Made by a program: the position numbers and the translations under genes. DNA of 34,489 bases from Seison nebaliae (Eukaryota), in the NCBI GenBank assembly GCA_023231475.1, contig JALJEE010003270.1:1-34489 (forward strand). The letters are read 5' to 3'. Under the pieces are notes generated by a model. That model did no database searches, was not told where the DNA came from, and was given only the letters and a program-made list of their open reading frames with translations. This document shows positions 431 through 28,670 of this stretch, one piece after another; the stretch's first letter is position 1, and each line of letters starts with the position of its first letter.

Positions 431-1420
431 TCATTTTTTCCGTCCAATAAAATTGTTCATACAATCATTAATTCCAAGAAATTTCGACAACCGACGTTCC
501 ACAGTGATAGGAAAAATTCTGAAAATGTCAATAAAGAAGAATTAGAGTTGTGGAGAAAAAATAAAGAACCCTCTGAAAGCATATAATAGTCGACAAAAAA
601 ATGGAAATATTATCAATTCTTCATTCCTTAAAATTCCTCCGAAAATTTTCTCTACAGCATAATCGGTTGATGAAATTGGAAGTATAGAAGGAAATTTTGT
701 TTGAACTCCATCAAACATTCCTGTATTGATATAATACGGACAGACAATGGTATTGGCAATGAGTGAATTCATTTTCATTAATTCTTGAGCAATTGCATCA
801 GCAAATCCAAATGCTGCAAATTTTGAAGCAGAATAATCAGCTAATGCCGATGAACCTTGAATGGCAGCCATACTACTAATTGTGACGAGATGTCCATTAT
901 CATGAGATATCATTTGAGATAGAAATGATTTCACCAACCAGAAATGAGACATCACATTCACATTCATACAACGTTCAACTGCGTCGTCGTTTAATTTCAA
1001 AAACGGTGCACCACTTACCACACCTGCATTATTAATTAACATAGTAACATATGATGGTCGAATATCGTTTTTGATTTGATCGGTGACTGCATAAATATCT
1101 TCTTTCTTCATACTTAAATCCAAATGATATAGTCGAATGTCATTCCGTTTCATTAAACTTTGTTCGACGGAGAAAAGTTCATTTTTTAAACTTTCCAATT
1201 GTTCCATATTATAATCCACCAATATTAATTTTTTGCATTTCAACTTGAAAAATTTCTTGGTCAATTCCTTCCCAATTCCATTTGCGGCTCCCGTTATTAA
1301 AATGACATCTTCACTCACATCTTTTGGTGGTTTGTCGAAGATGGAATAATAGACACTCCTCCCAATATCGAATGAGATTTGGGATAGTAGAATGAAAGTT
1401 TGGTAAATAATTTCCAACAT
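431..1420 (-). CDS. Short-chain dehydrogenase/reductase, SDR16C family (RDH10/SDR16C5-like), 312 aa, 2 exons
   Basis: TGAANGIG cofactor motif, NNAGV, YSASK catalytic motif and CPYYINTGMF. Model complement(join(431..518,570..1420)). Removing a 51-nt GTTCTT...TTTCAG intron (519-569) gives a family-like C-terminus GIFPITVERRLSKFLGINDCMNNFIGRKK. Confidence 0.93.
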
Positions 1421-1764
1421 TACAGAGCAGATTTTTAGTTGTCGACAGTCGAAGTGTTTGGGAATGGAAGCTTTATTTTTATTCAGTTCTCACATCATTC
1501 GACATTTGAAGTCCACATTGATGTCCATACGACTAATTGAATGAGAGAATCGATAGAATATTGAAGTTGTATAAAAACTCAAAATTTGTTATCATAAATA
1601 CGGAAAAATTCTTAATTATACATAATATGAATTTAATTTTCAAATATAAATTTCATATGAAGTTTTCGAATTCGAATTGTTTTTTTTCAATTAGAAATAT
1701 TTGTTTTATGTTTTAATTAATTTACAATTATTTTCAGTTTTAAACTTATTAATTCTGTTCTTTC

Positions 1765-3162
1765 ATGGTATTGCCGTCATGGTTTCCGTATACTACGATG
1801 GATATTCGTTGGAATTCTATTAACGAATATGGTTTTCATAACAAAGAAAAAGTGGCTGGTTTTAAGAACCCGAAAGGGCTAGGTATATGCGCTACTAATG
1901 TTATATTATCGATGATAATGTCGAGTGAATATATCATGAATTTCTTAAGAGAACATCGCACAAATTCCATGGATACTTTGTATGATCGAATGAAGAATGT
2001 TCGAAAGAAATTTAGTACAAAAAATGTTGATCAACTTTTAAGTGATACGAACGAGTGTGAAGTTATAATTAAAGGAATCTGCGATTTAAGTGATGAAAAA
2101 GCTTCAGAGTCTTTAAATGGAAGTTTTGGAACGGCAGGTAATTATCATTTAGTGAAAGGATTAAAGAGTTCACAATCTACTGATTATGAAACGGAAGTTG
2201 CGAGTGAGAGAATTTGTAAGAAATTGATATGTGATGCTAAAGTGAGAGATGGTCGAGATTATGCCAGATGGAAAGATTTAATGAACGATTTATTGACAAC
2301 TTCTAAAATTCATTCACCATCTGAAAGTTTTCATCGGGAAATTCCTGGTTTTATGTTCGATTGGATTCCACAAATTAGAATGTTGAATTTGCAGGCACAT
2401 ATTGAAATTTCACCAAAAAATAGATTTAGTTTAAAACCGTTCCGACCTGATTACCAAAAGTATTTCAAACATAGTAAAATGGAGAATTTACAGAAAGAAT
2501 TAAGATCATTGAATGTCGATCCAAAATTGATAGTTTTGACTTTCGGAAAATATCGTGCGGTGCGAATTCATCCCGGATTTTATTACAATGTTGCACGAAC
2601 ACTAAAACAAGCTGCTAAAACTGGAGAGTTTGCTTTGGAAGAAGATTTTATTTATTTTTATCCTCAAACTTTCTCCCTTCCCAATTTAAGTAAACCGAAA
2701 AATAAATATCCGTTTTTGATTAATGGTGTTAATAAAATGTACATTTTGAAATCGATTGCAGTGATTCTCGTGAAGGAGACAACTATGAAAATTTCTGAAA
2801 TTCCAACATATAAGAATATGGATGAAAATACGCAAATGGCTGTCAATGTTTGTGTTGCTACAACTGAGGAAGAAATTAAAAATTTATTAAGAGAACGAAA
2901 TTTGCAAAATTTAATACCTTTCATGGAAGATATTACTATTGATATATATCTGTTATTACGAAAAATATGTTCATTTTTAAAATTAGATGGAATTACAAAA
3001 TTCGGTACAGGTAATCATTCCATTCATACGTTTGCTCTTATTGTAAAGAATGAAAGATGGATCATAATGAACGATGAATTCTCATGTTATGTTGATGATA
3101 TCAACACATTCACCACAATGTTGAAAGATGAAACAATTTCAAGTGTATTATTTGAAGAATGA
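1765..3162 (+). CDS. Orphan-family protein copy 1, 465 aa, putative highly divergent USP/peptidase C19 fold
   Basis: Long intronless ORF and clear paralog of 4501..5916. USP-like motifs in order: GFKNPKGLGICATNVIL (Cys box), PKLIVLTFGKY, YPQTFSL, YILKSIAV, IHTFALIVKNERWIIMND (His/Asp box), SVLFEE. The ORF is well supported; the fold assignment is inference. Confidence 0.7.
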   Translation: MVLPSWFPYTTMDIRWNSINEYGFHNKEKVAGFKNPKGLGICATNVILSMIMSSEYIMNFLREHRTNSMDTLYDRMKNVRKKFSTKNVDQLLSDTNECEVIIKGICDLSDEKASESLNGSFGTAGNYHLVKGLKSSQSTDYETEVASERICKKLICDAKVRDGRDYARWKDLMNDLLTTSKIHSPSESFHREIPGFMFDWIPQIRMLNLQAHIEISPKNRFSLKPFRPDYQKYFKHSKMENLQKELRSLNVDPKLIVLTFGKYRAVRIHPGFYYNVARTLKQAAKTGEFALEEDFIYFYPQTFSLPNLSKPKNKYPFLINGVNKMYILKSIAVILVKETTMKISEIPTYKNMDENTQMAVNVCVATTEEEIKNLLRERNLQNLIPFMEDITIDIYLLLRKICSFLKLDGITKFGTGNHSIHTFALIVKNERWIIMNDEFSCYVDDINTFTTMLKDETISSVLFEE

Positions 3163-3339
3163 ATTTAAAGTTTTGGAAGTTTATGAATAAGATTACAATA
3201 TGATATTTTTCATTATCTTTCAAATCTGGGAATGTCATATAGATTATCATGTGCAAGAATGATTAGATGATTAGAAATTTAGTTAAATAAAAATCGATAA
3301 ACGAATGAATTATTATTAATATTATTATTTATTACCACA

Positions 3340-4317
3340 ATGTCTGATAGACAATTCCCCTGAGGGATAAAGTTCAGAAAAAGGATTAAAAGAAAAAAGG
3401 AATAAAATGGATGAAATAAAAAGAGTTAGATGATAAGAAATAAAAGGAAAAGAATTCATGATTCGATTTTATAACGATACACACTAAACAAATTAGTAAC
3501 CGTACAAGGTGTTTCCGTTCATCATTCCGATCGAACGTATTTCTGACATTTGAGAGATGAGGAAGAAAATTTGATGGAAGAATATTGAGTGGAGAGAAAT
3601 TTATAACAAAATCTTTAAAATCGGAAGAAGTTGGTGAGAACAGTATGTTATAATAATTATGAACTAACGAATCCATTCCCTGAAACGAAGGATTAGTTGA
3701 AATTCCGTCCAGAATTCCTAGAATTCTCCTTGCACATATGATAGAAAACGGAATCAAATCAGTAAGTGCAAACAGGAACGCCGTATTACAAGGTTCCCAC
3801 TTTACATGGATTAAATAAGTATTATCCATTTATGGTTGACGAAATGTTGAAACCGTTTAACCTAAAAGCAATGGTAATAATTTTAACTTCAGAAACATAT
3901 TTCCAGATGAATCATCTTCCACTAAAAAACTATAATATGCTAGTTAACACGGAAATCGCATGTTCCGATCTAACATTTCATAAGATTGAGGAGATGATGA
4001 AAAAAGAGGATAAGCATATCTCTCTTTTGAAAAAGTTGAAATATTTAAAGTTAATTCTTGGAAAGATATGTTCGTTTTTCCTATATAATGCAACGACGAA
4101 GTTTGACGAATTGGTAAGTCAGGTACATGTATTTTCAGTGATTCAAAGAAATGATAAATGAGTAATACTGAACGATGATTTCTCGTATTACACCGAATAA
4201 ATTTATGATTTCACTTTAATATTGAAATATGAAACAATAACCAGTGTACTACTCGAGGAACCTGTAAGTACATCGTTTGGACTTGAATTTACTCGGGCTC
4301 ATACGAGGCAAAATTAA
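3340..4317 (+). pseudogene. Degenerate third paralog of the USP-like orphan family
   Basis: The frame of ORF 3766..4161 aligns with the paralogs' C-terminal part (YPFMVDEMLKPFNLKAMVIIL, KICSFF, VHVFSVIQRNDK*VILNDDFSYYTE*...ETITSVLLEE). In-frame stops at 4159-4161 (TGA at the conserved Trp) and 4198-4200 (TAA). The 5' part (ATG 3340, MSDRQFP*) has many stops and is shorter than in the paralogs, so the 5' boundary is uncertain. Confidence 0.8.
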
Positions 4318-4500
4318 TCTTCAGGTGGCCAAAATTTATAAAAATCGTAAATTTGAGTAATTAGTTAGCGATAAATATTTTACTCTTCTACAAAGTTTTT
4401 TTCTCGAAAAATAATTAAATTCCTTTATAACTCGAAAGTTTTTTCTTCGAAAAATCCAAAACTTCTATTTCGTTTAACTCTTGTTCAATTTTTTCATCCA

Positions 4501-5916
4501 ATGGACTTACCGTCGACTTTCCCCTGTGAAAGTGAACCATATCGATGGGTTTATCTTCGACAACATGCTAAACGTGGTCCTCACATCCACAATTTTTTAG
4601 AGAATTATACACACGGTAATCGTTTCACTACTACATGTATCATCAACTTATTCTTAACGATGTTGACTTCATATTTCAATATAAAGAATTATAGACAAAT
4701 TAATGATCTTTCTCCTAACAATTGGTTCTACAGCGTTCAAGAAGTTAGAGGATTGATATGTGCTACACCAGTACACGGTTTATGGTCGACTCTTGACGTA
4801 CCGAATAATATGATCTTCACCATCTGTAATAATTTCAAGGGAGAAGTGTCAGATATTTATAATGAATTTGGGAGAAATAATTGGCTAGCAAATGCCATGA
4901 GGAAACTGAAACCGATTACTGACTTAATTTATATGCCAACTGCCACCACTTGTGAAATCATGACCGAATCGATTAAAGAAGATCAATATAAGAAATGGAA
5001 GAATTCCATTAAATATATTTTAAAACCATCAATCTCTTTACTAACACCTCCTCCTTATAAAATGGGTTTAATTTCCCATTTTTCCTACGATTGGTTTCGA
5101 GAAATTAAATTTTTAAGTTTACAAGTTGATTTCACTGCAATTCCAAATGATCCCACTAAAGCTAATCCATTTGTACCCGGTTTCACAAAATATTTGAAAC
5201 CTCAAGAGAAACAAATTCTGGAGAGAACGTTAACAGATAACAATATTGATCCGAATATGATACTCATCAGTTTTCCGGTATATCGTCTTGTTCGTCTTCA
5301 TTCCAGATTTTATTTGGATAATATAATAGAAAAAATTTTCGAAAAAAAATCAAACAAAACAACTATAGATTTCAATTCAGTTCGCATATTCTATTATCCC
5401 CAGACCATATCCTTTCCCATTTATCATGGAATTGTAGATAAATATCGTTTTAATCTCAACGGAATTAATAATTTTTACCATTTAAAATCCATAACCGTTC
5501 TTATGAATGAAGAAGTCACATCTTATGTAAAAGAATTCCCTTCACAAAATCATGTTGATTACAAATTATATAAGAATTTGGAAAATTGTATCGATACTAT
5601 TTATCATGAAATAAATTCTTTACGTGCAAAATTCGACAAAGAAGACATATCGATGTATATCAGTTCGACAATCAATCAATTCAGTTATGATACGGAGGAA
5701 TTATTCCGTAAGATTTGTATATTTTTGATGAGGGATGCAAAATCTGATTTCGATCCTCCAATAATGCCAACTCATAAATTTGTCGTAACAACTCGAAATG
5801 ATACATGGATAATCACGAATGATGAATTTTCATGTGCCATAAATAATATCGTCAAATTTTCCCAGTTAATGACAGATGAAACTATTACAAGTGTACTTCT
5901 CGAAAGAACAACATAA
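4501..5916 (+). CDS. Orphan-family protein copy 2, 471 aa, putative highly divergent USP/peptidase C19 fold
   Basis: Intronless ORF co-linear with 1765..3162 (MDLPSTFP vs MVLPSWFP; FSYDWFREIKFLSLQ vs FMFDWIPQIRMLNLQ; shared YPQT and NDEFSC; DETITSVLLE). Candidate catalytic Cys in TTTCIINLFL; candidate His and Asn/Asp in THKFVVTTRNDTWIITND. Confidence 0.7.
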   Translation: MDLPSTFPCESEPYRWVYLRQHAKRGPHIHNFLENYTHGNRFTTTCIINLFLTMLTSYFNIKNYRQINDLSPNNWFYSVQEVRGLICATPVHGLWSTLDVPNNMIFTICNNFKGEVSDIYNEFGRNNWLANAMRKLKPITDLIYMPTATTCEIMTESIKEDQYKKWKNSIKYILKPSISLLTPPPYKMGLISHFSYDWFREIKFLSLQVDFTAIPNDPTKANPFVPGFTKYLKPQEKQILERTLTDNNIDPNMILISFPVYRLVRLHSRFYLDNIIEKIFEKKSNKTTIDFNSVRIFYYPQTISFPIYHGIVDKYRFNLNGINNFYHLKSITVLMNEEVTSYVKEFPSQNHVDYKLYKNLENCIDTIYHEINSLRAKFDKEDISMYISSTINQFSYDTEELFRKICIFLMRDAKSDFDPPIMPTHKFVVTTRNDTWIITNDEFSCAINNIVKFSQLMTDETITSVLLERTT

Positions 5917-6164
5917 TAGAAAAGAACGTTCAATTATTCACATTCAATATCAAATAACATCATAATAATTATTTTCACAATTCGATTTTATATAGAAAAT
6001 TATCTAATTATAACTTTTCTCATTTATATATTTTTCACTAATTCAACTCAAATTATTTGGGAAAAATTTAAAAATAAAAATAAAAAAATTCGAAATTTAA
6101 GAAAGAAAATTAAAATGAAATAAAAACGGAAAAAAATTATCGAAAAAATGAAAAAAATTAAAAA

Positions 6165-7082
6165 TTACAATAATTCGATATTTTGTTTTCGACGACGTTT
6201 CGCAGGAGGATCCGTTGACAATTGTCCTTTACTGTATATTTGACTTTTCATTTTGTTTACGACGTCATTGAAATTAGGAAGACGATTAATTTGGACACAT
6301 CGATTATTCGCCGTCGCTATCATGGACGACGGCATTTCTTTCCAAGTCTGTGTGAGAAGAAGATTATCCTGATTCAATTTCTGTTTATTCTTCTCATGTT
6401 CTTTCGCTAAGAATTCCATTCGTTTCGTCATAAAATAATTTTTTTTGTAAATATTCGGATCATTTTCCGATTTTTTCGTATTTCGATTATGTTTCCTTTT
6501 TGGAGCGACTTTAATTTCATAATCTGCAATAATATCTAAATATTGATGATAAGTAGAAACATCTCTTACTTGAGGAAAGATGTGAGTGATCGGTTCAATT
6601 TTATTGAGGGAATGTATTGGAAAGAATGTACAATATTTATATGAACATGTCGTTTTTGATGATTTGTCGATATTGATTGCTGAATATTCGATAATTTGAA
6701 TATTTTTTGAAGTTTTCATAAGATTTCTATACCAATCTTTATCACTGATATCAGGATCTTTTTGTTGATTCTTCGGTTTGTGCAATGCTTCATGTTCTAT
6801 TAAATTCTTCTTTTTCTCTTCTTCAATGGCTTGTTTGGTTGTGAGATAATCTTCATCTCTTTCATGTTGTTCCTTTAATATTCTCCTACGATATCTATTC
6901 TCCAATTGTTTATTATAAATTCTCCAAACAATATGATCGTCATTCGTTAGAATTGGAGTGCGACTATTTTTGTCGATGAAAGTTAAAAGTTTAAGAAATC
7001 GTTTAAATTCTCGTTTATTAATTTCTAATTTATTCTCATCATTTCCATTTTCTTTCTCTCCCAATTTATATTTGATTTTCAT
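6165..7082 (-). CDS. Hypothetical basic protein, 305 aa, with C-terminal NLS-like motif
   Basis: 305-aa ORF in very AT-rich DNA; PPAKRRRK resembles a monopartite NLS. The ATG is directly preceded by an acceptor-like TTTAG, so this may be a downstream exon. No family recognised. Confidence 0.7.
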   Translation of the reverse strand: MKIKYKLGEKENGNDENKLEINKREFKRFLKLLTFIDKNSRTPILTNDDHIVWRIYNKQLENRYRRRILKEQHERDEDYLTTKQAIEEEKKKNLIEHEALHKPKNQQKDPDISDKDWYRNLMKTSKNIQIIEYSAINIDKSSKTTCSYKYCTFFPIHSLNKIEPITHIFPQVRDVSTYHQYLDIIADYEIKVAPKRKHNRNTKKSENDPNIYKKNYFMTKRMEFLAKEHEKNKQKLNQDNLLLTQTWKEMPSSMIATANNRCVQINRLPNFNDVVNKMKSQIYSKGQLSTDPPAKRRRKQNIELL

Positions 7083-7206
7083 CTAAATTCTAATGAATAA
7101 ATCTGATGGAAATTAAATTTAATTAAATGAAAATTTCAAGGAAAAATATTGAAGGAAAAATTTACAATTGTTAATAATGATCATTAATATTTCATCTGTT
7201 TAATGA

Positions 7207-8184
7207 TTAATCTTTGACATTATCGAACATATATTTTAATGGTTTATCACGACGTCGATGATTCGTCGCAGGTTGATGAGAATATCGTTGTTCTGGAACT
7301 TGATAACTGGGTTGATGGAGGAGTGGATTGATGATTGGAATCGATCCACTCACTTTATGATGACGTCGACTCACATATGATTTAATCGGCGGTTCAATTG
7401 AAGTTTGATAAGAATGTCGTGAAATAGAATCATTATAATTATAAGAATGACGACCAATCGATCGACCAACATGATCCATATTTTCCATTCCATAATTCGA
7501 ATGATAATGTGGATGTTGATGGATTTGTTTCTGATTATTTCGAATTTGTCTTCGAATTCTATCCGAATCTGATTCACTTTCATCTCCATCATCAATAAAA
7601 TCTTCGTCGTCACTATTACCACCTGCAGTAATATCATATTTCGATTTTCGACTATATTTCCGTTCAGGTTGATGATGTTTAAGAACCGTCGAAAATTGGT
7701 CATTATTCGATTTATCTATTCTTGATCGACTGATACGTTGATGTGGTCCACCATATGCCGGTTTACCACCTAATCCCATCATGTTTTGAGAAGTCGATAC
7801 ATTTCCTGTTAGTCGTTTCGTTAAACGTGGATTCTTATTAACTCTCCCACTTTTCTCATTTCGTTGATTTTTTGTAGTCGTACTATTCCTCTCCATCCAT
7901 TCTTTCCAAGGATCATATGTATCACGATCTACTTTCATCATAATTCTTTCATCAACAACATTCTCTGAGAGAATTTTCCTCTTTCCAGGATAATCAAATT
8001 CCGACGTTAAAAATAATAATTTCTGATTCTCCAATTCATTCAGATGTTGTTCTTTTTCCACTTGGTGGAGAACGTCGGAAAACTTTTGAACAAATTCAAC
8101 TTCCGCATTCATCGGTTCTTCTATTTGCCGTTCAATCACATATTTATTTTTGAATTTGTTATTCAAAATTTTCGTTGAAGTCAT
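7207..8184 (-). CDS. Hypothetical low-complexity/disordered protein, about 325 aa
   Basis: Long ORF whose first ATG is at 8184 (the track start at 8277 is TTG). Acidic patch SDDEDFIDDGDESESD and R/H/S-rich tail. No family recognised. Confidence 0.7.
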   Translation of the reverse strand: MTSTKILNNKFKNKYVIERQIEEPMNAEVEFVQKFSDVLHQVEKEQHLNELENQKLLFLTSEFDYPGKRKILSENVVDERIMMKVDRDTYDPWKEWMERNSTTTKNQRNEKSGRVNKNPRLTKRLTGNVSTSQNMMGLGGKPAYGGPHQRISRSRIDKSNNDQFSTVLKHHQPERKYSRKSKYDITAGGNSDDEDFIDDGDESESDSDRIRRQIRNNQKQIHQHPHYHSNYGMENMDHVGRSIGRHSYNYNDSISRHSYQTSIEPPIKSYVSRRHHKVSGSIPIINPLLHQPSYQVPEQRYSHQPATNHRRRDKPLKYMFDNVKD

Positions 8185-8745
8185 TTTGTCCGATAGAATA
8201 TTTTTCCTTAAGAAAAATTCTACTGTTGTTGTTCCCAATATCAGATTGTCAAATAAACAATTTATTTCAAACTTCAATTTTTTCTCTTTTCTTTCCTATT
8301 AAAAAATAAGCTTGTGTTAATTAAATTAATATCCTTCTTTAATTAACGTTAATTAACCAGACTTTTTCATGAAGGTGATCAAAACTTAAAATAATTTAAC
8401 GTAATTGAAAAAATTCATTTTTCAAAAATGCTCCATAATGACATCGTCTTTTAATTTTTTTCTAAAGTTTTTTAACGATCCATCAACTGAACTATACTCC
8501 GTCTTGAATTATCTTACAATAATTATTATTATTATTAGAAATTTCTAATTGGAAGGAAGATATGGTTTACTTTTCTTTATAAATCTTTCTATCCAATTTC
8601 AGATTATGAAGTTTTTCCTAATTAAAACTAACTTTATTTAACTAATTCTTTTTAAAAAGATAGCTGAAATAATTCATTTAATTTCTTCAATATTTTTTTC
8701 ATTTTATACAAGTCGGTTGATAAATTAATTGTATGTTGAAGTAAA

Positions 8746-9334
8746 ATGGTGTACATAACGGCGAATGGTGATATTGTTGACGGTAATACTCCAAGAAGCA
8801 CTACACGAGTTCTTTTCTTAGTACATAATAATTTTAAACTTGCAATTAGCCTACACCAAATGGAAATTTGAATAATGTCAGATCGACAAATAATACGGAA
8901 TCAAATCAGAATGAAGTAAGCTCCGGTTTCTCCATGGAAATTTTCGATACTTGGAATCAAAAATTGACAGATGTTCCTTATTGTATTCTAAATTAAATAT
9001 GTTTTCTTTTCCATTTTAGTATGGAGTTCCAACATTCACCTTACCAAATAATTGGAAAATTCGTCCGATTGTTTCAGTTTCATCTTTGTTATCTACCGTC
9101 ATGTTCGGTTACCGAGGATTAATGATGTCCATCATTCTCTATGTCATTGTACAAGTTCCAAATAAATTTTGAGATCCATTTATTATTCATATTCAGGTAA
9201 GTAAAAATGGTGCTGATAATACAACGGGAGGTCAACAAGGCTCATCATCATTCCAACCGAACCTTCCAGGTAGAACTGATAGAATGTATCAATTTAAATC
9301 GTTTACAGGAAAGGGTCAAAAATTGGGACAGTAA
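8746..9334 (+). CDS. FAM241 (DUF4605) family small membrane protein, 152 aa, 4 exons; not in the ORF track
   Basis: join(8746..8808,8850..8972,9020..9154,9197..9334), three phase-0 GT-AG introns of 41, 47 and 42 nt. The translation MVYITANGDIVD...FDTWNQKLTDYGVPTFTLPNNWKIRPIVSVSSLLSTVMFGYRGLMMSIILYVIVQ matches the FAM241B pattern as I recall it (MVRILANGEIV...FNDLNRQLVNMGFP...LGVRGLLLVGLVY). C-terminus is FTGKGQKLGQ. Confidence 0.85.
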
Positions 9335-10041
9335 TTTCTTCGAAATTAACATCTTAGAATTTTCGAAAAAATTGACTCATTCTCTTTGTTCTATGTTTAG
9401 TAAAAATTTTTTGGAAATAACAAAATTTGAAAATTAGCAATATAAAATTTCTCATATTTCTTCTCAAGTTGAAAATTGTGAGAATAAAATTATTACAAAA
9501 AATTTAAAATTTAATCTGTCTTTAACTTTTACCGATTTAGCTTTGATATTTCAAATGAAGTTTTGAAAATTTTTTTTTAATTTTCTATTTTAAAAAATTT
9601 TTATTCAAAAATTGATAAAGGTTTTTCTAGTGCTGTCTTTAAGGACCCCAATATTTTATCATTATTCTAACAATGGGTTCATCATCACAATGTACATTGT
9701 AAGTTCAATGGGCTATCAATCATATATATAATTTATTCTCGTTCTCTTCTGCGTTCTCTCATCGAAGTAACGTTCCTTTTCCCCTGATTCCTCATCACCT
9801 ATCCTCGTCGCTTAGCAACTCCTCGCTAAGCTTTATTTTCCCCAATAAACTTATCACCGAGCCTAGCCACTTCATTTTTCTTATCAAAAATAATAAACCT
9901 CTCATTGAACGATAAGTTGAGGGAATGTTATATTATGCATAGAAATTTCCTAATTTAAATTTACAAATTTAAATTTTGGCTTAAAAATTTCAATTTTTAA
10001 ATTTTATTTTCTGGTAATCCGTCATCATTTGGAAATTAACT

Positions 10042-14588: not shown

Positions 14589-16177
14589 TCACTCCAACAT
14601 GTTTAAGGTGACATCGTTCTGCATTTTCTGACATACATCCGCATCAAAGAGAAATGCCTACGAATGAAATGATTAATAATGGAAAGTTTTATAAAATAAC
14701 GTGTTAACTTTCGAATAAGATTTCTGGGCCATTTTCGCATCAATTTTCGCGATCTTACCATTAGTGAAACATCGAGCATATATGAAATTACCAATCGCCA
14801 AGCCTTTGTAACCGAATCGACGAATACATTCAGTCTCTTCTATAATCTTTTCATAATTCGTCAAATTCGAAAGCCATTTGGCCAGTTCATATGCTTTCCT
14901 ATATAATTTCTTCTGGTAATATCTCTCCGAAAGAAGACCAGAAGCATAAATGCTTCCTCTCTTCGAAGCATTCTTCAAATGATGAAATGATGCCGCTTCA
15001 TCTTTCCTCGTTCCCAAACCATACGTATAATGCACAGCTAATGCAGCTACAAAACGAATTAAATATTTTTATTACACTTAATTTCTTTTTAGTTTCACTT
15101 AAATGAAAAATGTTTATTTCATCCCAATTGATAATGTGATTTGGAGAAAAAGATTCTATATTAACCTTCGCTCTCCAGTGAACCATTTTCAGTTGCTAAT
15201 TTATGAAAATGGAAAGCCTTCGTCAAATTCAATGTCTCCTCATCTTCAATGATGTAATTAAAATTAAGTTGAACATTTTAAGACTAAACAAACTCGTTCT
15301 ACTATAGAAGAGACCTAATGCAGATTGCGCTTTCATTAATCCATTTGATTGAACATTCTCTTCAGCAGCAATTAACCAGTACCTTCAAAGTAAAATATTA
15401 TATGACGATTATATTGTTTTGGTTCGATATATTAAATGGAGACAAAAAATTATTATATGAAATTTTTTCACAAACCTTTCAGCAAGAACATCTGAAGCTC
15501 TATCGACGCCAAATCCAAAGAAATATGCTTTACCCAAATTATAACAACAAGCTTGCTTCAAAGCAATCTCATCGTCATTCAATTCATTTTCTTTCTCTTT
15601 GCCAACTATTTGCGTCAAAATCTCCTCCAATAATTTTACTCCTCTTATCTGACATTTAGTTAATTTACGAAATAATTTGAAGCATAAGAAACTTGTGAAT
15701 TCTCTTTCATTGACGTTTCGGTTAACAACTCGTCATAATACAATATGCCTAGCTGGAATTTAGCTCTTATATCCAGTGTCGCTATCTCACTGTAATAATG
15801 ATAAGATTTATCATAATCATTCTATTAATGTGTGAATTAGGAAGAAGGATTTATGTATGAAATTTAACATTTTCAAAATAAAATTGTCCCAATAAAAATT
15901 GGAGAAGTGATTTATTCTTGTCTTCATTTCTCGTTATTGCTGTCTTCAATATCTCCTCAGTTTTCTCCACGTATTCCTTGGGAGAATTACAATGTACAAA
16001 TAATTTCTCGTTCTATTTTTCAGGAGAATGTAATCCAATTTAATTCCCACCAACCTCAATCAAACAATATTGTACTACTGTCTTATCTTTCTGAATGAAA
16101 TGTGCTTGTTGTGTAGGCAAGTTGTAGGAAGATAATGGTGTTCGTTTTTCCTCCAAAATATTTTTCATACTTTTCAT
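14589..16177 (-). CDS. LRP2BP: LRP2-binding protein ortholog (SEL1-like repeats), about 368 aa, 8 exons
   Basis: complement(join(14589..14657,14709..15046,15166..15243,15294..15382,15476..15648,15693..15821,15869..15976,16055..16177)), all phases compatible. The translation has FLLGQFYFE, AKFQLGILYYD, YNLGKAYFFGFGV, AERYWLIAA, KAQSALGLFYS, KAFHFH...NGSLESE and GLAIGNFIYARC, co-linear with LRP2BP as recalled. The first exon is least certain. Confidence 0.85.
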
Positions 16178-18770: not shown

Positions 18771-20013
18771 TTGGCACTCTCCAAAAAATTATTATTGTTC
18801 AACAATTTCAAATATTTCGTTAGAAATTCTAATTCTTTATCGAATTCTCTCATTCGTCATCTTTCTACGATGGTTCTTCGACACTTTGATCAATTCTTCC
18901 AACAACTCAGTAAACTACTTATTATAAGAGATACAAAGAACATGATTAACATGTTGAATGACGTTTTAGAAAAATGTACAAGTTTCAACCCAAATCTCTC
19001 ATTATTTCGATCCATATATATATTCGATCAATTAGGTGGAATTGAGGATGATAAGAAAACATTAAAATGGGAACAAAGAGCTGAAGAAATTGATCTATTG
19101 ATGAAATTGTTACGACAATCTTACCTGGAAATGCATTCGTCAGTGTTCCGATTAATTCCATTTTACAATTATTGGAAAATGAAACGAAAACTTCATAAAA
19201 TTCTGTTCGATTTCTATGATATTTGGAATCGTGACGCTTTTCTTAGTTCATCAAATTTAATAATAATTTAATGATAAATAAATGATTTAATTTAGGTGAA
19301 AAATTGGAGGATGGAATTCACAAGGAACCTCAACATAAACGTGCGAAAAGCTTCAAGAAAAGCGGAATTATCAATTATCCTACAAAACTAACAACATTAC
19401 TTGGTTAATTTCTTTAATTTAATTCTTTCTAATATGAAAAAATATATATATATTATTTATAACTTCTTCCAGATAATAAAGAAAGCGATGATTCTGATGA
19501 ACAATCGGAAGACGAAGCTTTGAAATTTCTTGGTTCCGTTCATTTAAATCCACGAATCGGACATGCTGACAAATTGCATCGACAATCAACCAGATTGCGA
19601 AGAAGCGCACAACAGTATATCCGTTATGTTGCCAATGTGATGAAAAATGTAGCGAATACATTGCAACAATCAAAAAGTCGATCATATTTCAAACAGTTAA
19701 TTTTTTATTTGTTTGAACTCTTTCAACAATTTCTTCTAGACGTCAAATGTTATTCTTGTTAATACTAGACATAATATTTGATGATAAATGCTTCTATAAG
19801 AGAAACGATAAAATGAATCGAGTATTGGAACGAGTCAAATCTAATATCTCAGTTGATACTCAGAAACAGAAGAGATTACAACAAATAGAACTGATGCAGT
19901 TGGAAGCAGAATCCATTGCCAACTATCCGGTTCAACCACCAGTTCTCACCAAAAATCATGCGAGATCCATGAAAAAGTATAAAGAATTAAGAAGGAAATA
20001 TACGTCCAATTAA
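18771..20013 (+). CDS. Hypothetical multi-exon protein, 5' end unresolved
   Basis: Track ORFs 18771, 19520 and 19747 join in frame as join(<18771..19245,19296..19403,19473..19695,19740..20013) through three GT-AG introns of 50, 69 and 44 nt. Start codon and family not determined. Confidence 0.65.
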
Positions 20014-20699
20014 CTAAACATCATTTTCATTAATTTCTCCTTTATTACCAATATCAATTAATACTAGTATTTTATATTTCTTCATCGATTATAATCCGTA
20101 CGAAGAACGAATAAATACTGTTCGGCATTAGTTCCAAAAAAGAATAATTTGGACCTGATGAAATATCATATCTAATACTTAAAAGAATGTACCTGTTCAA
20201 TGTGAATTCTCCAATATTATAAATAGGAAACATCAGAAAAATAATTTTGGTATGATTTCCAAAGGAATTGGTGAGTGAGTTTCAAAATACGGAATATTTT
20301 CATAGTCTTTCATATTTTGATATTCCAAATACTTATTCCCGAGAAGAATCATCAGATAATTCAATTATTATAATCATACATTACATTACATAAAATATAG
20401 TTTATGTAAAGTTATTCAATAAATTAATTATAATCATAACGACGAAAGATAACTAATGGCAAGAAAATTGAATTATTTTTATTTGATCAAAATTAAACGT
20501 ATATAAAAGTATATGGTATAATATATATTATTTCAATGATAGAGATATTGAATTATTAAACAATGAAAAAGAATATTGCATCAATATTAGTTGAAATATT
20601 AATGCTAGTATTAAACATTATTTGAAGTATACCAAGAGATTTCTATAATTAGATCCATTTTAATTTATATTAAAAAAACGTAAAGACGTATAAGAGAAA

Positions 20700-22157
20700 A
20701 TGTCTCAAGATCCGAAAGTATCGGCAATGACGGTTGTGAATGCAAGTTCACCACAAATAAGTGATGTAGCAGAAACAACAGAGACACCGAGAAAGAATAT
20801 GCGCGATTTGAAGAACATGTTACAAGCTGTTCTCATCTGTATTGTCCTGCAATTATTTCTCTTATGGATAATTGGTAAAGAGGAATTGAAGTCTGCGAGA
20901 GATGAGAGAAGTTCTCTTGTTGCCGCTGATTATAGAGAACATGATGAGCAGTCAACAAAAGAGAAGTTGAGAAATGCGTTGATTATTGGAGGAGTGATTA
21001 TGACGGTTATAATCGTTATGACTTTTTTAATGTTACTTATCTTTTATATGCATTGGGAGAAGATTTTTTTTAAAATATTCACTGGATTATTATTAATGTC
21101 AATCGTAGTCAACGGTCTCTTTATTGCCACACTCATCGTATCAACTAATGATGTTGTTGTCGATATTATTACAGTTGTACTTTTTGCTTACAATATGGCA
21201 GTCGTAGTGACAATCAGTCTGATATGGATGGCACCGAAATTAGTTCAACAAATGTCACTAATTTTGATCTGCAACATCACCGCATTTCTTATCAATTATT
21301 TACTCTATAACACAATGACATGGATCTTGGTTGGATTTCTCATTGTTTGGGATTTAATTGCTGTTTTATGTCCGTTCGGTCCCTTAAAATTGATGGTGAA
21401 TATTGTCGACCGTTCAGGTGGCAAATTGCCCAACGTTCTCATTTACCATACGATAATTATGAGAGGAATGAAATTAACGAAAAGCGCAAGTAGAAGAAAA
21501 TTGGGAAATTTTAATAATAACAACAAATTTCCTCAGTTTGAAACTGATACGACAATAGAAGAAACCAGTTTCAGTGAGGAGAAAACGGAAACTAAAATGT
21601 GTCTATTGGAATGTCGAAATAGAAATTTCCATAATAAGAATCGTCTTCCCGTTAATGTATCAGCTTCAACAAATGGAAAAGGGTCAGCAACCGAGTTCGA
21701 TGCTCAATCTATGGCCACTAATGAAAACACCAGTAACGAAGTGAGTAATGATGCTTCAGGAGATGAGACGACTTATCTCAAAGTTCCCGCCATACGCCCA
21801 ACAAAATCTTCTCGCTTATCCATCTTTGCTGATCAAGATCAATTGCAAGATTATATGGATGAAATCGAGAACGAATACGAATCGACCGGTTCACAATTAG
21901 GGTTAGGTGATTTTATATTTTATTCTCTGATGGTGGGCAAAGCTTACGGTTATGGAAATTGGATCAGTACAATTGCCGTTCTCATCAGCATTCTTAGCGG
22001 TCTTGTGTTGACTGTTATGATCTTATTCTTAACGAATATCAGAGCTCTTCCCGCTCTGCCCATTTCCTGCACACTCGGTCTTATCGTTTTCCTACTCTCA
22101 CATTACACACTTGAACCTATGATCGAAATGTTGAATGATAAACAACTTTTTGTTTAA
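20700..22157 (+). CDS. Presenilin-family GxGD aspartyl protease (peptidase A22A), divergent, 485 aa
   Basis: VWDLIAVLCPFGPLK (TM6 Asp), LGLGDFIFYS (TM7 GxGD) and ALPALPIS (PAL motif); multiple transmembrane segments and a large hydrophilic loop. Intronless. Confidence 0.93.
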   Translation: MSQDPKVSAMTVVNASSPQISDVAETTETPRKNMRDLKNMLQAVLICIVLQLFLLWIIGKEELKSARDERSSLVAADYREHDEQSTKEKLRNALIIGGVIMTVIIVMTFLMLLIFYMHWEKIFFKIFTGLLLMSIVVNGLFIATLIVSTNDVVVDIITVVLFAYNMAVVVTISLIWMAPKLVQQMSLILICNITAFLINYLLYNTMTWILVGFLIVWDLIAVLCPFGPLKLMVNIVDRSGGKLPNVLIYHTIIMRGMKLTKSASRRKLGNFNNNNKFPQFETDTTIEETSFSEEKTETKMCLLECRNRNFHNKNRLPVNVSASTNGKGSATEFDAQSMATNENTSNEVSNDASGDETTYLKVPAIRPTKSSRLSIFADQDQLQDYMDEIENEYESTGSQLGLGDFIFYSLMVGKAYGYGNWISTIAVLISILSGLVLTVMILFLTNIRALPALPISCTLGLIVFLLSHYTLEPMIEMLNDKQLFV

Positions 22158-22622
22158 ATGAAAAGTCAATAAATAGTATATCTCGCTAGTTGTTGAAATA
22201 AAATCTTTTTTATTAATTATCACCAAATTGAAAAACTGAAAAATTTTCAAAATTTAAAAATTCAGTTAAATAAATATTTTTTATCATCGAAATTCACCAC
22301 GGAAAATGGTGGAGAATATAGTTTCATAGATTAAAACGTAAAGTATTTGAAATGTAAATAATATGAAAAGGAAAAAATCTTATCCGAAAAGACAAAAAAG
22401 TGTAGTAGTTTATTGAAATGATCTTATCAGTTTTTCTCTTGTTGAAATTGTCTACCGAAATTTGTTTTGACACTTAAAATTCTAATAAAATTACTTATTG
22501 AGAGTAAATGTAAATAAAGAGAATAATATGGTTTCTTATAGCAATTCGGCTGCATTCGGTGTAATTGTCTTACGAAAATTGAACTTGTCTCTTGTTTACA
22601 TAAATCGTGTGGATGATTGAGG

Positions 22623-23621
22623 ATGAGCATACACGAAACTTTTAATTATAATTCCGACGAAATGACTCTTAATTCATTAACGAATGGTCTCATAAAGAAA
22701 CATTCGAAACAAAGATTAAGTTCTTTCGCATGGAAGTTCTTCAATACCATTCCTCGACAAGTGATCGATGAAAATGAATTCACCACTCGAACCAAAGAGA
22801 AAACATTGGAAGAGAATAAAACGAGGAAGACTAAAAGTAACTTTTTCGCTCAATTCAATGAAGACGATTGTCTAAAATGTGGAATTGGATGGAGGAATGA
22901 AGTGGAAAAATCGACCACGGCAATTCGACGAGTACAATGTCGATTCTGTGGCGCGTCAATGAGTGTTTCCAGTGCCACAAGATTATGTCATCACATTTTG
23001 CGATGTCGAAATTCTTCAAAAACTTGTAAAGATTTATTTAAATTAATTAAAACGGATAAGCTCGTTAAATTCAACAAAGACAACCCAACTCACAGGAGAT
23101 CCATCAGCAACTTCGATCATAATGACGTGACGATCACGGGACAAACGAATGATAATGAAATTTATGATGAACGATTATCAATGAGTGATTGTCATGATAT
23201 AATATCAATTATCGATGAGTTTCTCAAAGAGAATGAACGAATTTATCATATTCCTGATAATGAAATAAGAATGTTATTAGAGAATCGATCCACATTACAA
23301 AAACGAATATCGAGAATGAATTCATCAGAAGAACAAGAGAATTTGAAGAAGAAAATTGAAAATTTCGTTTCCAACAAATTCATACAGAATTTGGTTGAGA
23401 AAAATATTTCCAATAAAATTCCTCCATTAGCCGATAACGACCATTCTATGGACGGAAATGTAACGGAAGAAATTAACGTTGAAACAGATGATGATAATTG
23501 GGGTTATGGATATAAAAGTTCATCATGTTTCCATGAACCATATCTACGATTATTGGAAGAATTGAAAATTGATGTTAATAAATTATCATTCGAACAACAC
23601 AAATTTATTGAACAATACTAA
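22623..23621 (+). CDS. BED-type zinc-finger-containing protein, about 332 aa
   Basis: SFAWKFF ... VQCRFCGASMSVSSATRLCHHILRC matches the BED pattern (W..F, CxxC, T..L..H...C). First ATG at 22623. No transposase catalytic domain visible. Confidence 0.65.
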   Translation: MSIHETFNYNSDEMTLNSLTNGLIKKHSKQRLSSFAWKFFNTIPRQVIDENEFTTRTKEKTLEENKTRKTKSNFFAQFNEDDCLKCGIGWRNEVEKSTTAIRRVQCRFCGASMSVSSATRLCHHILRCRNSSKTCKDLFKLIKTDKLVKFNKDNPTHRRSISNFDHNDVTITGQTNDNEIYDERLSMSDCHDIISIIDEFLKENERIYHIPDNEIRMLLENRSTLQKRISRMNSSEEQENLKKKIENFVSNKFIQNLVEKNISNKIPPLADNDHSMDGNVTEEINVETDDDNWGYGYKSSSCFHEPYLRLLEELKIDVNKLSFEQHKFIEQY

Positions 23622-23650
23622 AAATATGAAAAAATATTTTTTTGAGCATC

Positions 23651-23704
23651 ATAACAACAACAACAACAATAACAATAATAACAATAATAACAATAGCAAT
23701 AAAA
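23651..23704. repeat. (AAC/AAT)n microsatellite between convergent genes
   Basis: ataacaacaacaacaacaataacaataataacaataataacaatagcaataaaa, ending in an AATAAA poly(A)-like signal on the + strand. Confidence 0.85.
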
Positions 23705-23713
23705 TTTATTTGA

Positions 23714-26700
23714 TTACCAACAATGATCGGAGAATAACGTTAAAGTAAATCCTGGAAATTTACCACTTCTATCAGAAAGGAAAGTCAATATGAAATTATT
23801 CCATTTCACTCGGAATGATAAAACATAAGAAGATTTCCTACGACTACGTCCGATTCTTTTCAATTTCATTTTATCCAAATATATTTCATTATTCCATATT
23901 CTTCTCCAATGATAATCTTCAACGTCTTGCCACTTCTCCCAATTTCTTATGAGATATTTCTTATTTGTGTCATTATCTGCTATATTTTTAGGAATAAATT
24001 CAAATTTTACCGGTTGTTGTTCAATCGTTGAATTCGAATGATTCTCAATTTGGAGATTCCTTCTCACTTTCATCAATTCTTTACCAGCATCCAATTCATT
24101 TCCACATAAATCGATAAAATGTTTCGTCTCATTCATCGTCGGATTGAAGAAATCGATCTGTAAATAATCAAATCGACGACACGAATGCCATTTGGAATCG
24201 CTTTTTTCTGTTTCGAATCCATCGAATATGAAATAAGTACAATATTTATCTGATGTGACATTCCATTGGACATTGTAAGAATTTGGATATTTGTTAATTG
24301 TTTGTGAGTTTATTTGATGATGTTTCAGATTGAATAATTTTATTTTATTTGGTTGATAGATAACATAAATTTCAACGAAATGATTTTGTCCTTCTATATC
24401 GACAACAATTGTTGAAGAAATATTTGTGAATAATTGAAGATTCCCATCACTATAAGTTCTTTGACGACATTTCACATAAAATCTATTTCCACAAGGAACA
24501 TGATAACATTTTCCATGAATTAACAATTGACCAACAAATCCGTTGTAAGAATGAATATGATTAATGATCGGACCTCTCTTACGATGACGAATGAAAGAGA
24601 ATGTTGTGGATTCATTTAGAGATCTTTCTATTATATTTGTTTCCGTTTTATTTTCAAATTGATTTCCTAATCGTAATATTCGTCTTTTATTATATGATGA
24701 TATTACATATGATTTCAAATTCGTATATTTTTTATGTATTTCACAATCTAAAAGAATTTAAAAGAAATTAAAAGAAATTCAAAAGAACTTAATAATAATT
24801 CATCAGAAATCTCATTAAATCGTTTCTCGATACATATCACTTTCAATTTCTTATAATTGAAGATACATCTTTGACTGGATTTACATCGATGATATTTCCT
24901 TAAACAATCATTCCGTACTGAAAAAAACAAATAGGCTAATTTAAATCGAATTAAAAAATAGAACTTAAATGTATTGTGAAATTGAGAGAGTCGATATTGT
25001 GGTAATGGTTTGGGAGATGGTCAATAAAATTATATTGAAAAAGAAATCCAATCGATTTTGGTCGCGATGAAACAATTTCAGAAATATTTCCATTGAAGAT
25101 TTGGGTGGAATTTGGAAGAATAACAATTTCCTTTTTATCCATTTCACCATTCCAATAAAGATGAGTAACATTGAGATAATTCTGAAAAAAAAATATTTTG
25201 AATTGAGTTATAATTTATAAAATAAAACTTTCGAATTCTCAATACTAGTGAAATTGAAATTGAGTACTAATTCATAAAGATATGGTAGACGATAACCGTT
25301 GGGAATGATTAACCAGGAATTATTTCGATACAAATTGGAAGAAGTTAAATGAAAAATTTTATTATAAATAATTTCTTTCTCATTCAGAATGTAATTGACT
25401 GGTTCGGAATTTCTTTCAATTCTTCCACGTCCGTTATGAAAGTTGTCGATTATCGACGTCCGTGCAGGAATCTTAATCGATTGTTCTGATTCTTCTACTT
25501 CTAATTTACATAAAAATAGTGGAGCATCGATAACATCAACATTTCTATTTTGAATTGATTGAGAATTGACAATTTTTTTAATGTTGATCAACAATCCGGA
25601 ATGGAATCGTTCACTTAAACGTAACAAGATTTGTGATCTAACATAATTTTTGGATGAAATGTTCGATATTAATTTAGCATCGAATAATTGATATACATCA
25701 TCATCCAATTGATCATATGACGAAAATTGGAAAAGTCCTATTTCATATTCATTCTTCCGGTGATATATCGGACGGTAAAAATTATCTGAAATAACCGATG
25801 AAATATTTATAGTTCCAGTTTGATGATCATTTAACAAAAAAATAAAATTTGATTCGTACAAATTGAAATCGTTATTCATTTTCGAAATATATTCTTTCGC
25901 AACGGGGAAATTAAGTTGGTTAGTTTTGGAAATATTATAAATTATCGATTTGATATCATTCGATATTCGTAGTCGTTTTAAATGGAGAATTGTCTCCGAG
26001 AATTTTATTAATAACCATTCATTATTGACCGCTGGAAAAATCGAATGTTATATAAGATATTGAACGACATGAAAAATTGAACTTTTGTATTTAACAATGA
26101 AATTAACAAAATCTTTCTTTCTCCGATAATTTAAAGAAATATCGTTTTTGAAAGTAAGTAATGTATGATAAGAAGAAATTCGATTAAGATGAATGTAATA
26201 TGAAATTATCGATATTTTTTCCTTATCTGTTAAATATATTTCATCTTTATAAATCATTTCAATTAGAGTTGAAAAATAGAAGAAATTAAACTCTTTATTA
26301 AACTAGCCAGAATTTCATTTTTGTCCATTTTTTCGTTTCCATTCCCTTCCGTTTTATTTACAACACAATATGTAACTATTAATAAGTCAATTAATAATAC
26401 GACAAAGAAAATTTTGAAAAAATACATGAAAAATATTGCAGTTCTTTCTTCTGATTTATTGAATTGATCAATTTCCGAAATTTTTCTATTTTCAAAAAAT
26501 TGTTTAAGGTTTATAATGTTTGATCGTATGCTAAAAAAACTTTCGTTAAAAATTTCGAATATTTCATCCATAATATTAGGGAATGGTTCATTGACTGTCA
26601 ATATTCCACTACAATCCGTTCTGTAATATTGACGAAATAATCGACTATAACTATTCATTACCGGTATTAAATGAACATCTTCGGAAAGAAATTGAAATTC

Positions 26701-28670
26701 AATTCTCTAAAAATACAAGTAGCAAAATTAAAATATGTTCATTATTAAACTTCTCCAAGTTGTCTCCTTATTCTCCAATTGCAGTTGTCACAATAATTTA
26801 AGTAAAATTTATTAGTTGATTTTTCAGTAAAATTGCGCGGATTATCTTAAGGAAAAAGGACATCATCGTAGGATCATAGAAAGAAAACTACAAAGAATAA
26901 CTTTCACAAGTGTAAAGCTTATTCAGAGCTTGTCGATCCGTTTTACTCGGTTGTTTCGACATTCCCATTTTCTTTTCGATATCACTAATTGTCAAATTTT
27001 CCGTTTTCATTAAATTTGGAATTTTCTTTAATTTGATAAATTTACTGGAGTAATGCATGATGGAGAATGGATCGTAAGGGAAAATTTCATATTGAGGCAT
27101 ACGAATAATCATATCGTTAACGATATTTAATCTAGACGCTGAGAATAAATGAAAAAAAAGAAAGCAGATGGAAATATTAACATAAAGGAAGACGACGCAG
27201 AGCAGAAATGTCATATTTGATATAATGATGTCGGTCCATTCGTTGATGTTCATGTGCTAATCCAACGACATGACCCAGTTCATGAATAATCGTATTGAAC
27301 TTTCTAATACAAATCATTCCCAAATACAAATTTGCTGATGGCGATGTTGATGTACGAATTTCTGTATAACATCGTCTAAAACCGAAATGAATTGGTAGAT
27401 CGATAATCAGTCGTTAACTTTGGATTTCTCGATTTTTCTATTATCAGATGAGCTTCGGGTAACATCGATCGATTGGAAATTTGAACGAAGTCAAGACAAC
27501 TTTTCTTCTGCCACACATCAATACCATTATAGATTTCCTTCAAATATTTCGTTTCTATTTAATAAATAAAGTTTAAGAATATTTTACAAGAAATCTTAGG
27601 AAAATGTTACTTTCAAATGATTTTGAGATATGGAAGGCTATTTTACCATTCTTCCACTTTTGATGATAAATTTCGAATAAAGCTCTTCTATCTCGATATT
27701 TGGGACTAAAATGAAAAATTTCAAATTAAAATAATATTTGAAAAGTCGCCAATTTTGCAAAGCTCCCAATTTCAAAATAGAAATTTCATTCAAAATTTTA
27801 CAGGCATTATTTAAATTATTTCTTTTTTAATTTTTAGAATTATCATTATTGTTCAATTTTGTTCTGACGTGCCAACGAAGTAAGTGATAATTTTAGAGAA
27901 ATATTTGGAAATTTGTGGAAAAATGGATCAATTGAAAACACATCTGATGTTCGATGAATTGAAACGAATGAATCGACGACAAGTTCTATTCCAAGCATTA
28001 AATTTCGGTTTAATCGTTTCATCAGCTTTGATGATTTGGAAATTTATGATGGTTATCACTGGTAGTGGGAGCCCGGTCGTCGTCGTATTAAGTGGAAGTA
28101 TGGAACCGGCATTCTTTCGTGGGGATCTGTTACTATTGAGAAATATTCCAGAAGAACCGGTAACAGTTGGAGATATTGCTGTGTTCAAATTGAAGGAACG
28201 TGAAATTCCAATTGTCCATCGAGTCATTTCCGTTCATCAAAATAATGATTCTGACGTGCATTTCTTGACGAAAGGTTTCCATACAAATTTCCATTGATTA
28301 TTATTATTTAAATTATTTTACTTCAGGTGATAATAATGAAGTTGATGATCGTGCATTATATGATCGAGGACAATTATGGCTAACGAAGAATGAATTGTTA
28401 GGGAAACCGACTGGACATCTACCGTATGTGGGAATGGTCACTATAATTATGAATGATTATCCTCAGCTCAAAATTGTTGTTCTGGGCGTTTTATCTTTAT
28501 TCGTATTTCTCCATCGAGAAAATTAAATTTGCCACAAACAAAAAAAGAGAAGAATCATATATTAACTCGTTATTTCTGACAAGATGGTTTGATCGATCTT
28601 GCACCGGAATTGTTGTTATTGATGAAAGGAGAAGAATCGAAATTATCACAATCTTGTCAATATTGCCCAT
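23714..28670 (-). CDS. Astacin (M12A) zinc metalloprotease with degenerate CUB and EGF-like modules, about 1200 aa, 12 exons
   Basis: complement(join(23714..24747,24789..24917,24965..25181,25229..26031,26083..26244,26304..26706,26751..26845,26902..27138,27182..27375,27419..27554,27611..27705,28567..28670)), all phases compatible. Signal peptide [17 protein letters not shown], furin-like [40 protein letters not shown] and Met-turn [12 protein letters not shown]-like [13 protein letters not shown] and C-terminal CUB-like FDYLQI..LCG..FLSDRS..PGF. The catalytic domain is high confidence; the C-terminal joins less so. Confidence 0.8.
27923..28526 (+). CDS. SEC11: Signal peptidase complex catalytic subunit SEC11, 183 aa, 2 exons
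   Basis: join(27923..28274,28327..28526) with a 52-nt intron inside TKG/DNN. Motifs [42 protein letters not shown] and [15 protein letters not shown]. Confidence 0.96.

Follow-up and report, generated by a model that had tools for sequence, protein, structure and literature searches.

Purine-A/GTT donors in place of the animal 5′ splice-site consensus in four transcript-supported genes of a Seison nebaliae contig

Introduction

Among lineages whose 5′ splice sites (donors) have been transformed, the one with U at the third intron position (+3) found in print is Entamoeba, where the donor GUUUGU(U) is matched by a co-evolved 5′ arm, AACAAAC, of the U1 small nuclear RNA (snRNA), and where 88–89% of donors read GUUUGU and 97–98% GUUUGN in intron-poor genomes (Roy and Bowser, 10.1101/2022.06.08.495308). 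Here we describe the donors of the introns in a window of 34,489 nucleotides (nt), the whole stretch of DNA analyzed, which comprises positions 1 to 34,489 of the forward strand of contig JALJEE010003270.1 (assembly GCA_023231475.1) from the rotifer-lineage animal Seison nebaliae. As in Entamoeba, a near-fixed U at +3 replaces the purine in these GT-AG spliceosomal introns (22 of the 24 introns fixed by transcripts); unlike Entamoeba, whose donor is strict through +6, GTTTGT is found in 2 of the 24, positions +4 and +5 are free, and extra signal lies in the exon. Additionally, whereas Entamoeba is intron-poor, Seison is an animal with 13 introns in one of these genes. The donors resemble those of Entamoeba at +3 and are not assigned to that class, since the strict GUUUGU is not shared.

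Partial likenesses to donors of other organisms are found as well. Plants and animals have U5-type (AG/GU; a slash marks the exon-intron boundary throughout) and U6-type (/GURAG) donors, classes that hinge on +4 and in which −1 stays G (PMC10581693, PMC11347140). The Seison donors are like the U5-type class in carrying information at the exon end, with weak U6-facing positions +4 and +5, but they differ in a predominant A at −1 and in the +3 U, features that the passages covered of those two papers do not describe. With human donors read in a +1 register (Roca and Krainer, 2009, as described in PMC4856993 and PMC11162779) they share the A/GUU start and the A at −1, whereas they lack the downstream AAG of those sites (none of the 24 has G at +6), and non-canonical registers make up ∼1.5% of human sites against 92% GTT in the window. 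The median intron length here, 47 nt, is also the commonest intron length in Caenorhabditis elegans (PMC8865678); however, GUU starts ∼16% of introns in both C. elegans and human (PMC8865678) and GURAG makes up 44% in C. elegans (PMC11347140), compared with 22/24 and 0/24 in Seison.

Literature searches, which left most subscription journals outside their coverage, returned no description of GTT donors for Seison or any other animal. In the parts of PMC8351084 covered, “splic” occurs once, in relation to GENSCAN, and “snRNA” nowhere, and the PDF supplement has neither word; by word search, the main text of a 263-species survey (PMC11347168) does not name Seison, and the passages covered of PMC10125929 and PMC13161344 hold no Seison donor sequences. 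The introns of Bonamia are called canonical (PMC11069148).

Results

Donors of transcript-supported introns

The departure from the animal donor consensus is real and supported by transcripts in four genes of this contig, which is gene-dense and has 30% GC; one contig, and four genes with transcript support, are the scope of the transcript-fixed counts given here. The evidence comes from Additional file 2 of PMC8351084, a list of Trinity transcripts placed on the genome with GMAP, where, among the rows listed, at least 20 match window coordinates. They fix 24 introns, specifically one in SDR, three in a DUF4605 (FAM241-type) gene, seven in LRP2BP, and 13 in an astacin gene, and the open spliced frames of the four genes are 312, 152, 380, and 1171 amino acids (aa). 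The donors at these introns are GTT in 22 and GTA in two, with no GTG or GTC (Wilson 95% interval for GTT, 0.74–0.98). All 24 transcript gaps have a unique GT-AG placement, and 18 have a single possible placement of any kind, so that placing those 18 needs no splice motif. The GTT donors noted in a first-pass annotation of the window are confirmed for the four genes, in which the mappings fix 22 that the spliceosome really uses.

Searches with single exons returned NCBI proteins that are 99–100% identical, full-length, and labelled Seison nebaliae, namely an LRP2-binding-protein homologue and a 1122-aa astacin. Exact spliced alignment of these proteins gives one GT-AG placement per junction, with GTT at 7 of 7 introns in LRP2BP and at 10 of 12 internal introns in the astacin gene. 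The NCBI gene models are possibly circular as evidence, and transcripts were therefore sought; two sequencing runs over the window behave as DNA, with flat depth, and thus carry no information on splicing.

The first-pass annotation had called GTT near-invariant, at 25 of 26 introns. Its dominance holds, standing at 26 of 28 once SEC11 (one intron, fixed by homology) and an orphan gene (three introns, in its longest open frame) are added to the transcript-fixed set; the exceptions, though, are two and not one (GTAACA at 27610 and GTATTT at 26425), and the astacin gene, given 11 introns earlier, has 13 by transcripts. The donors listed at that time for SDR, FAM241, LRP2BP, SEC11, and the orphan gene are all present in the sequence at the expected places. 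The introns are listed below; transcript mapping is the evidence unless otherwise stated, joined by NCBI isoforms for LRP2BP intron 7 and by NCBI protein alignment for astacin introns 2 to 13.

519..569, minus strand: SDR intron, 51 nt, AGG/GTTCTT
8809..8849, plus strand: DUF4605 (FAM241-type) intron 1, 41 nt, CGA/GTTCTT
8973..9019, plus strand: DUF4605 intron 2, 47 nt, GAT/GTTCCT
9155..9196, plus strand: DUF4605 intron 3, 42 nt, CAA/GTTCCA
14658..14708, minus strand: LRP2BP intron 7, 51 nt, AAA/GTTAAC
15047..15165, minus strand: LRP2BP intron 6, 119 nt, AAG/GTTAAT, retained in one transcript isoform
15244..15293, minus strand: LRP2BP intron 5, 50 nt, CGA/GTTTGT
15383..15475, minus strand: LRP2BP intron 4, 93 nt, AAG/GTTTGT
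15649..15692, minus strand: LRP2BP intron 3, 44 nt, CAA/GTTTCT
15822..15868, minus strand: LRP2BP intron 2, 47 nt, AAT/GTTAAA
16013..16054, minus strand: LRP2BP intron 1, 42 nt, GAG/GTTGGT, retained in one isoform
19246..19295, plus strand: orphan gene predicted intron 1, GTTCAT, in the longest open solution only
19404..19472, plus strand: orphan gene predicted intron 2, GTTAAT, with GTT in all 140 open solutions
19696..19739, plus strand: orphan gene predicted intron 3, GTTAAT, in the longest open solution only
24748..24788, minus strand: astacin intron 13, 41 nt, TAA/GTTCTT
24918..24964, minus strand: astacin intron 12, 47 nt, TAA/GTTCTA
25182..25228, minus strand: astacin intron 11, 47 nt, AAA/GTTTTA
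26032..26082, minus strand: astacin intron 10, 51 nt, AAA/GTTCAA
26245..26291, minus strand: astacin intron 9, 47 nt, AGA/GTTTAA
26376..26425, minus strand: astacin intron 8, 50 nt, CAT/GTATTT, the second exception
26486..26540, minus strand: astacin intron 7, 55 nt, AAA/GTTTTT
26707..26750, minus strand: astacin intron 6, 44 nt, GAA/GTTTAA, retained in one isoform
26846..26901, minus strand: astacin intron 5, 56 nt, AAA/GTTATT
27139..27181, minus strand: astacin intron 4, 43 nt, TAT/GTTAAT
27376..27418, minus strand: astacin intron 3, 43 nt, AAA/GTTAAC
27555..27610, minus strand: astacin intron 2, 56 nt, AAA/GTAACA, an exception
27706..28566, minus strand: astacin intron 1, 861 nt, CGA/GTTAAT, open reading frame (ORF) from the ATG at 28670
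28275..28326, plus strand: SEC11 intron, 52 nt, AAG/GTTTCC, by homology only

Eleven of the 24 transcript-fixed introns are in phase 1. Three (15047–15165, 16013–16054, and 26707–26750) remain unspliced in some of the assembled transcripts; retention falls on 2 of the 4 introns whose donors have G at −1 and on 1 of the 20 others (p = 0.06), numbers too few to read. In SEC11, only GTTTCC at 28275 as donor gives a 183-aa frame in which the conserved TKG-DNN stretch is restored. The orphan gene has 140 open splicing solutions, half of which take GTG at intron 1, where a GTG donor at 19231 is in frame. For these two genes, searches by four gap patterns found no transcript row among the 19,906 rows listed of Additional file 2.

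Background composition and competing sites

Following a non-donor GT on the sense strand, T is found in 113 of 329 cases, a share that differs from the 22/24 at donors (Fisher p = 2.6e-8). The excess of GTT survives this null and two others, the T content of intron interiors (0.478; p = 7e-6) and the frequency of T after T inside introns (0.528; p = 5e-5), and it also holds against an assumed T share of 0.6 (p = 7e-4). The background of about one third earlier expected for T at +3 is thus right for GT followed by any base but too low for intron composition. These figures bear on the explanation that +3 is under no selection, the donors having decayed to GT and the count arising from T richness and from the choice of junctions. 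In its favor, T makes up 48% of intron interiors, and the bases at +4 and +5 resemble background; however, the junctions come from transcripts, with a single placement in 18 of 24, the excess holds against the T-after-T and 0.6 shares, and C. elegans, with an equal modal intron length, has 16% GUU (PMC8865678). Measured against that ∼16% of C. elegans and human introns, 22/24 gives p = 6e-16. We regard the absence of selection as very improbable, and as refuted within the window provided that the transcript mappings are right; the transcript-fixed junctions and the contrast with C. elegans together support the deviant donor signal proposed at first pass.

A preference for GTT is also seen where alternatives are at hand. 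With a non-GTT GT within 30 nt, GTT was chosen in 10 of 10 cases against 4.55 expected (p = 3e-4), in a comparison that covered the 23 short introns (the 861-nt intron being excluded), ignored reading frame, and did not count the two GTA introns, which have no competitor. Nine GTRAG sites are unused in the four transcription units, and three of them could compete for used acceptors; the resulting introns would be ∼100–140 nt, a length that alone may exclude these sites, and they are given little weight. Near intron 2 of the DUF4605 gene, whose exon 3 matches Pfam PF15378, a canonical-looking GAA/GTAAGC at 8916 is unused. A perfect canonical donor, CAG/GTAAGTA (9197–9203), lies directly after the last DUF4605 acceptor and is unused in the one transcript seen.

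Anatomy of the donor and acceptor signal

The signal is a short (A or G)A/GTT followed by T-rich sequence, and the positions that normally face U6 are free. On the exon side, which the first-pass annotation had under-used beyond its statement that −1 is frequently not G, position −2 is A in 19 and G in 5 donors, i.e., a purine in 24 of 24, and −1 is A in 16, G in 4, and T in 4; A lies above exon composition at both positions (p = 2e-5 at −2 and p = 0.002 at −1), and the G at −1 is at background. On the intron side, +3 is T in 22 and A in 2, +4 is A in 8, C in 7, T in 8, and G in 1, and +6 is T in 14, A in 8, and C in 2, with no G; G at +5, scarce as described earlier, occurs in 3 of 24. Expressed as uncorrected bits, the information is 1.26 at −2, 0.75 at −1, and 1.59 at +3, compared with 0.23 at +4 and 0.14 at +5.

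The introns have the features of the major (U2-type) class at their ends, with GT...AG termini and a pyrimidine-rich 3′ end with YAG. The acceptors are ordinary, with YAG in 20 of 24, AAG in 4 of 24, and a T-rich tail, and YTRAY occurs within the last 35 nt of 12 of the 24 introns (a count without control). The usual donor consensus fails at each of its marks, with a purine at +3 in 2, G at +5 in 3, G at −1 in 4, and GURAG in none of the 24. The donor motif of minor (U12-type) introns is RTATCCT, which is found in 0 of 24 donors, and introns of that type are ruled out.

This anatomy also bears on a +1 shifted register, in which a canonical U1 would pair one base out of step, −1 A with U10, +1 G with C9, and +3 U with A7, a rare human mode having turned into the rule. 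Such pairing would account at once for the −1 A and the +3 U and leave the snRNAs unchanged, it is established at some human sites (as described in PMC4856993 and PMC11162779), and GTTAA is present in 6 of the 24 donors. However, it predicts G at +6 and C at −2, each found in 0 of 24, and, in scoring, 10 donors favor the shifted register and 12 the canonical one, with 2 ties (p = 0.08 against decoy GTTs). The corresponding consensus, A/GUUAAG, was rejected on the missing +6 G and on the lack of a scoring advantage, although 16 of the 24 donors have A at −1, and we consider a shifted register improbable.

Age and origin of the introns

The GTT bias might instead be local to the contig, or due to a recent family of GTT-ended mobile introns, with the remaining genome ordinary. 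Transcript support comes from four genes on one contig, as would be compatible with this, and the position of the SEC11 intron is uninterrupted in 76 of 80 homologous loci (4 were not parsed), and none of them showed the intron; that sample is biased, as it favors uninterrupted genes and includes transcript contigs, and thus serves to place the junction and not to tell the age of the intron. In the opposite direction, four unrelated genes on both strands agree, and an all-against-all comparison of the 23 short introns gave a best score that 189 of 200 shuffles reach, i.e., no shared sequence beyond shuffles, which argues against a mobile family. An Introner-like family was rejected on the same similarity test. 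Moreover, two GTT introns are at probably old positions. Annotated owl LRP2BP isoform pairs part exactly at the column of intron 7, where a leech model runs off too, and in one owl LRP2BP model the join falls on the intron 2 column. Judged by these break-points of annotated protein isoforms, two of the seven LRP2BP introns, 2 and 7, probably occupy positions shared with birds. This indirect evidence suggests that two old LRP2BP introns now carry GTT, and the old donors were likely rewritten and not replaced by a new intron family; a local or mobile origin of the bias is unlikely in our estimation.

Gene models and gene context

The name LRP2BP is backed by named relatives in corals, leech, acoel, and birds, and a second LRP2BP isoform is present in the NCBI protein cluster. 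The second LRP2BP donor of the NCBI models, GTTATT at 14700, is supported by no transcript among the 20 matching rows. Rejected was the first intron of the NCBI astacin model, with a two-codon exon and a GTA donor, as transcripts join 28567 to 27705; that model is without the true first exon, which has its ATG at 28670 and a hydrophobic, signal-like start. SEC11 (27923–28526, plus strand) is nested in astacin intron 1 (27706–28566) on the opposite strand.

Many conserved genes between 542 and 33091 have no introns or nearly none (aldehyde dehydrogenase, GST-like, presenilin, and DHHC genes) and lie beside the genes with 7 and 13 short introns. The presenilin (20694–22157; Pfam E = 8e-75) is divergent and intronless, with GLGD and PALP present and WD at the first catalytic aspartate, where the motif is usually YD. 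Two ORFs at 1753–5916 are paralogs with 28% identity over 476 aa; they lack introns and match nothing in Pfam, and a shorter, similar-looking ORF at 3766–4161 may be a third copy in decay. A 14-nt unit recurs in four near-copies at 8–133, and the depth of the DNA runs at 33878–34300 is ∼13 times that of the rest, marking the start of a multicopy repeat. In the same runs, short low-depth contigs of ∼88% identity lie over exons at 14739–14909, 27171–27284, and 28082–28215; these may derive from a second lineage of the organism, as described in PMC8351084.

Discussion

We read these introns as short GT-AG introns of the ordinary kind in which purine-A/GTT has taken the place of GTRAG as the donor, most likely recognized by a U1 with a matching changed 5′ arm, a tentative reading to which we give a little less than even credence; the GTT pattern would then be expected genome-wide. 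Such a U1 would have A at position 6, opposite the +3 U, and position 9 would probably be U, which pairs with A or G at −1. The resulting helix of five pairs, from −2 to +3, would be weak, so that recognition would depend on intron definition over a span of ∼47 nt, on the U-rich sequence that follows the donor, and on U5 loop 1, which would hold the A-rich end of the exon, and the pairing of the U6 ACAGA box with a +5 G would no longer be needed. The single change to A at position 6 would cover the +3 U but leave the missing G at +5 and −1 unexplained, and thus more than this one change, or another reader, is needed. A changed U1 is favored because Entamoeba, the one published +3 U lineage found, has a changed U1, and because a purine-only −2 and a mostly purine −1 (20 of 24) suit U partners. 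Canonical U1 barely separates real donors from decoy GTs, with duplex energies of −2.15 and −1.94 kcal/mol (p = 0.25) and pair counts of 5.42 and 4.84 (p = 0.035), respectively.

Several points weigh against a changed U1 acting on GTT. The donors come from only four genes of a single contig, and the predicted U1 partner was not among the results of an Rfam scan of the window, which returned no snRNA and one weak match to a small nucleolar RNA (E = 0.5). Variant U1 arms fit the donors better, but this is circular, the variants having been picked from the observed consensus, and is a prediction and not evidence. Nine nearby GTTs are unused, so that GTT is not sufficient, and two GTA donors are spliced. 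The U1 5′ arm is invariant across 227 Saccharomycotina candidates, where the donor changes are at +4 (PMC10581693), and canonical U1 is also described in Thecamonas, Mamiellales, Giardia, and Trichomonas, again with +4 changes (10.1101/2022.06.08.495308). Lastly, an A-rich exon end is equally what U5 loop 1 alone would select.

This leads to the alternative that GTT is real and genome-wide while U1 is canonical, the site being picked later or by proteins (U5 loop 1, U6, U1C/LUC7/PRP8, or loss of METTL16/SNRNP27K), which we take as a serious possibility although a doubtful one on balance. In one form, U5 loop 1 would pair with the A-rich exon end, and the +3 U would form a wobble pair with G in the ACAGA box of U6 or pair with a changed box; in another, a changed U1C, LUC7, or PRP8, or a lost METTL16/SNRNP27K route, would remove the preference for GURAG. 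The existence of U5-type and U6-type donors in plants and animals (PMC11347140, PMC10581693) supports this, as does the move of worms and human cells to exon-side, U5-type donors when U6 N6-methyladenosine is lost (PMC11347140); in the window, GURAG is absent and every −2 base is a purine. Most lineages with unusual donors have an invariant U1 arm (10.1101/2022.06.08.495308, PMC10581693), and, according to Roy and Bowser, a U6 box that has not changed could form better pairing with GUUUGU (10.1101/2022.06.08.495308). However, the lost +5 G speaks against stronger U6 pairing, the U5 class retains the −1 G that is here at background (4 of 24), and the link to METTL16/SNRNP27K concerns +4 and not +3 (PMC11347140, PMC10581693).

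Returning to a changed U1, its widest form is that seisonids rewrote their donor code genome-wide to (A or G)A/GUU, with co-evolution of the U1 arm and loss of the U6/+5 G pair, and kept multi-intron genes; we hold this to be plausible, at somewhat less than even credence. A purine at +3 and G at +5 are treated as near-constant in animal donors, each tied to U1 or U6 pairing, and an animal dropping both is a natural experiment on the choice of the 5′ cut site, in which the question of U1 versus U5/U6 becomes testable with public data (a 44-Mb assembly). The Seison lineage, and perhaps its acanthocephalan relatives, would be misread by gene finders and by models of splice strength that had been trained on other animals. 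If true, the rewriting of the seisonid donor would be the first metazoan case of co-evolution between U1 and the donor, and a counter-example to the link of transformed donors with near-total intron loss.

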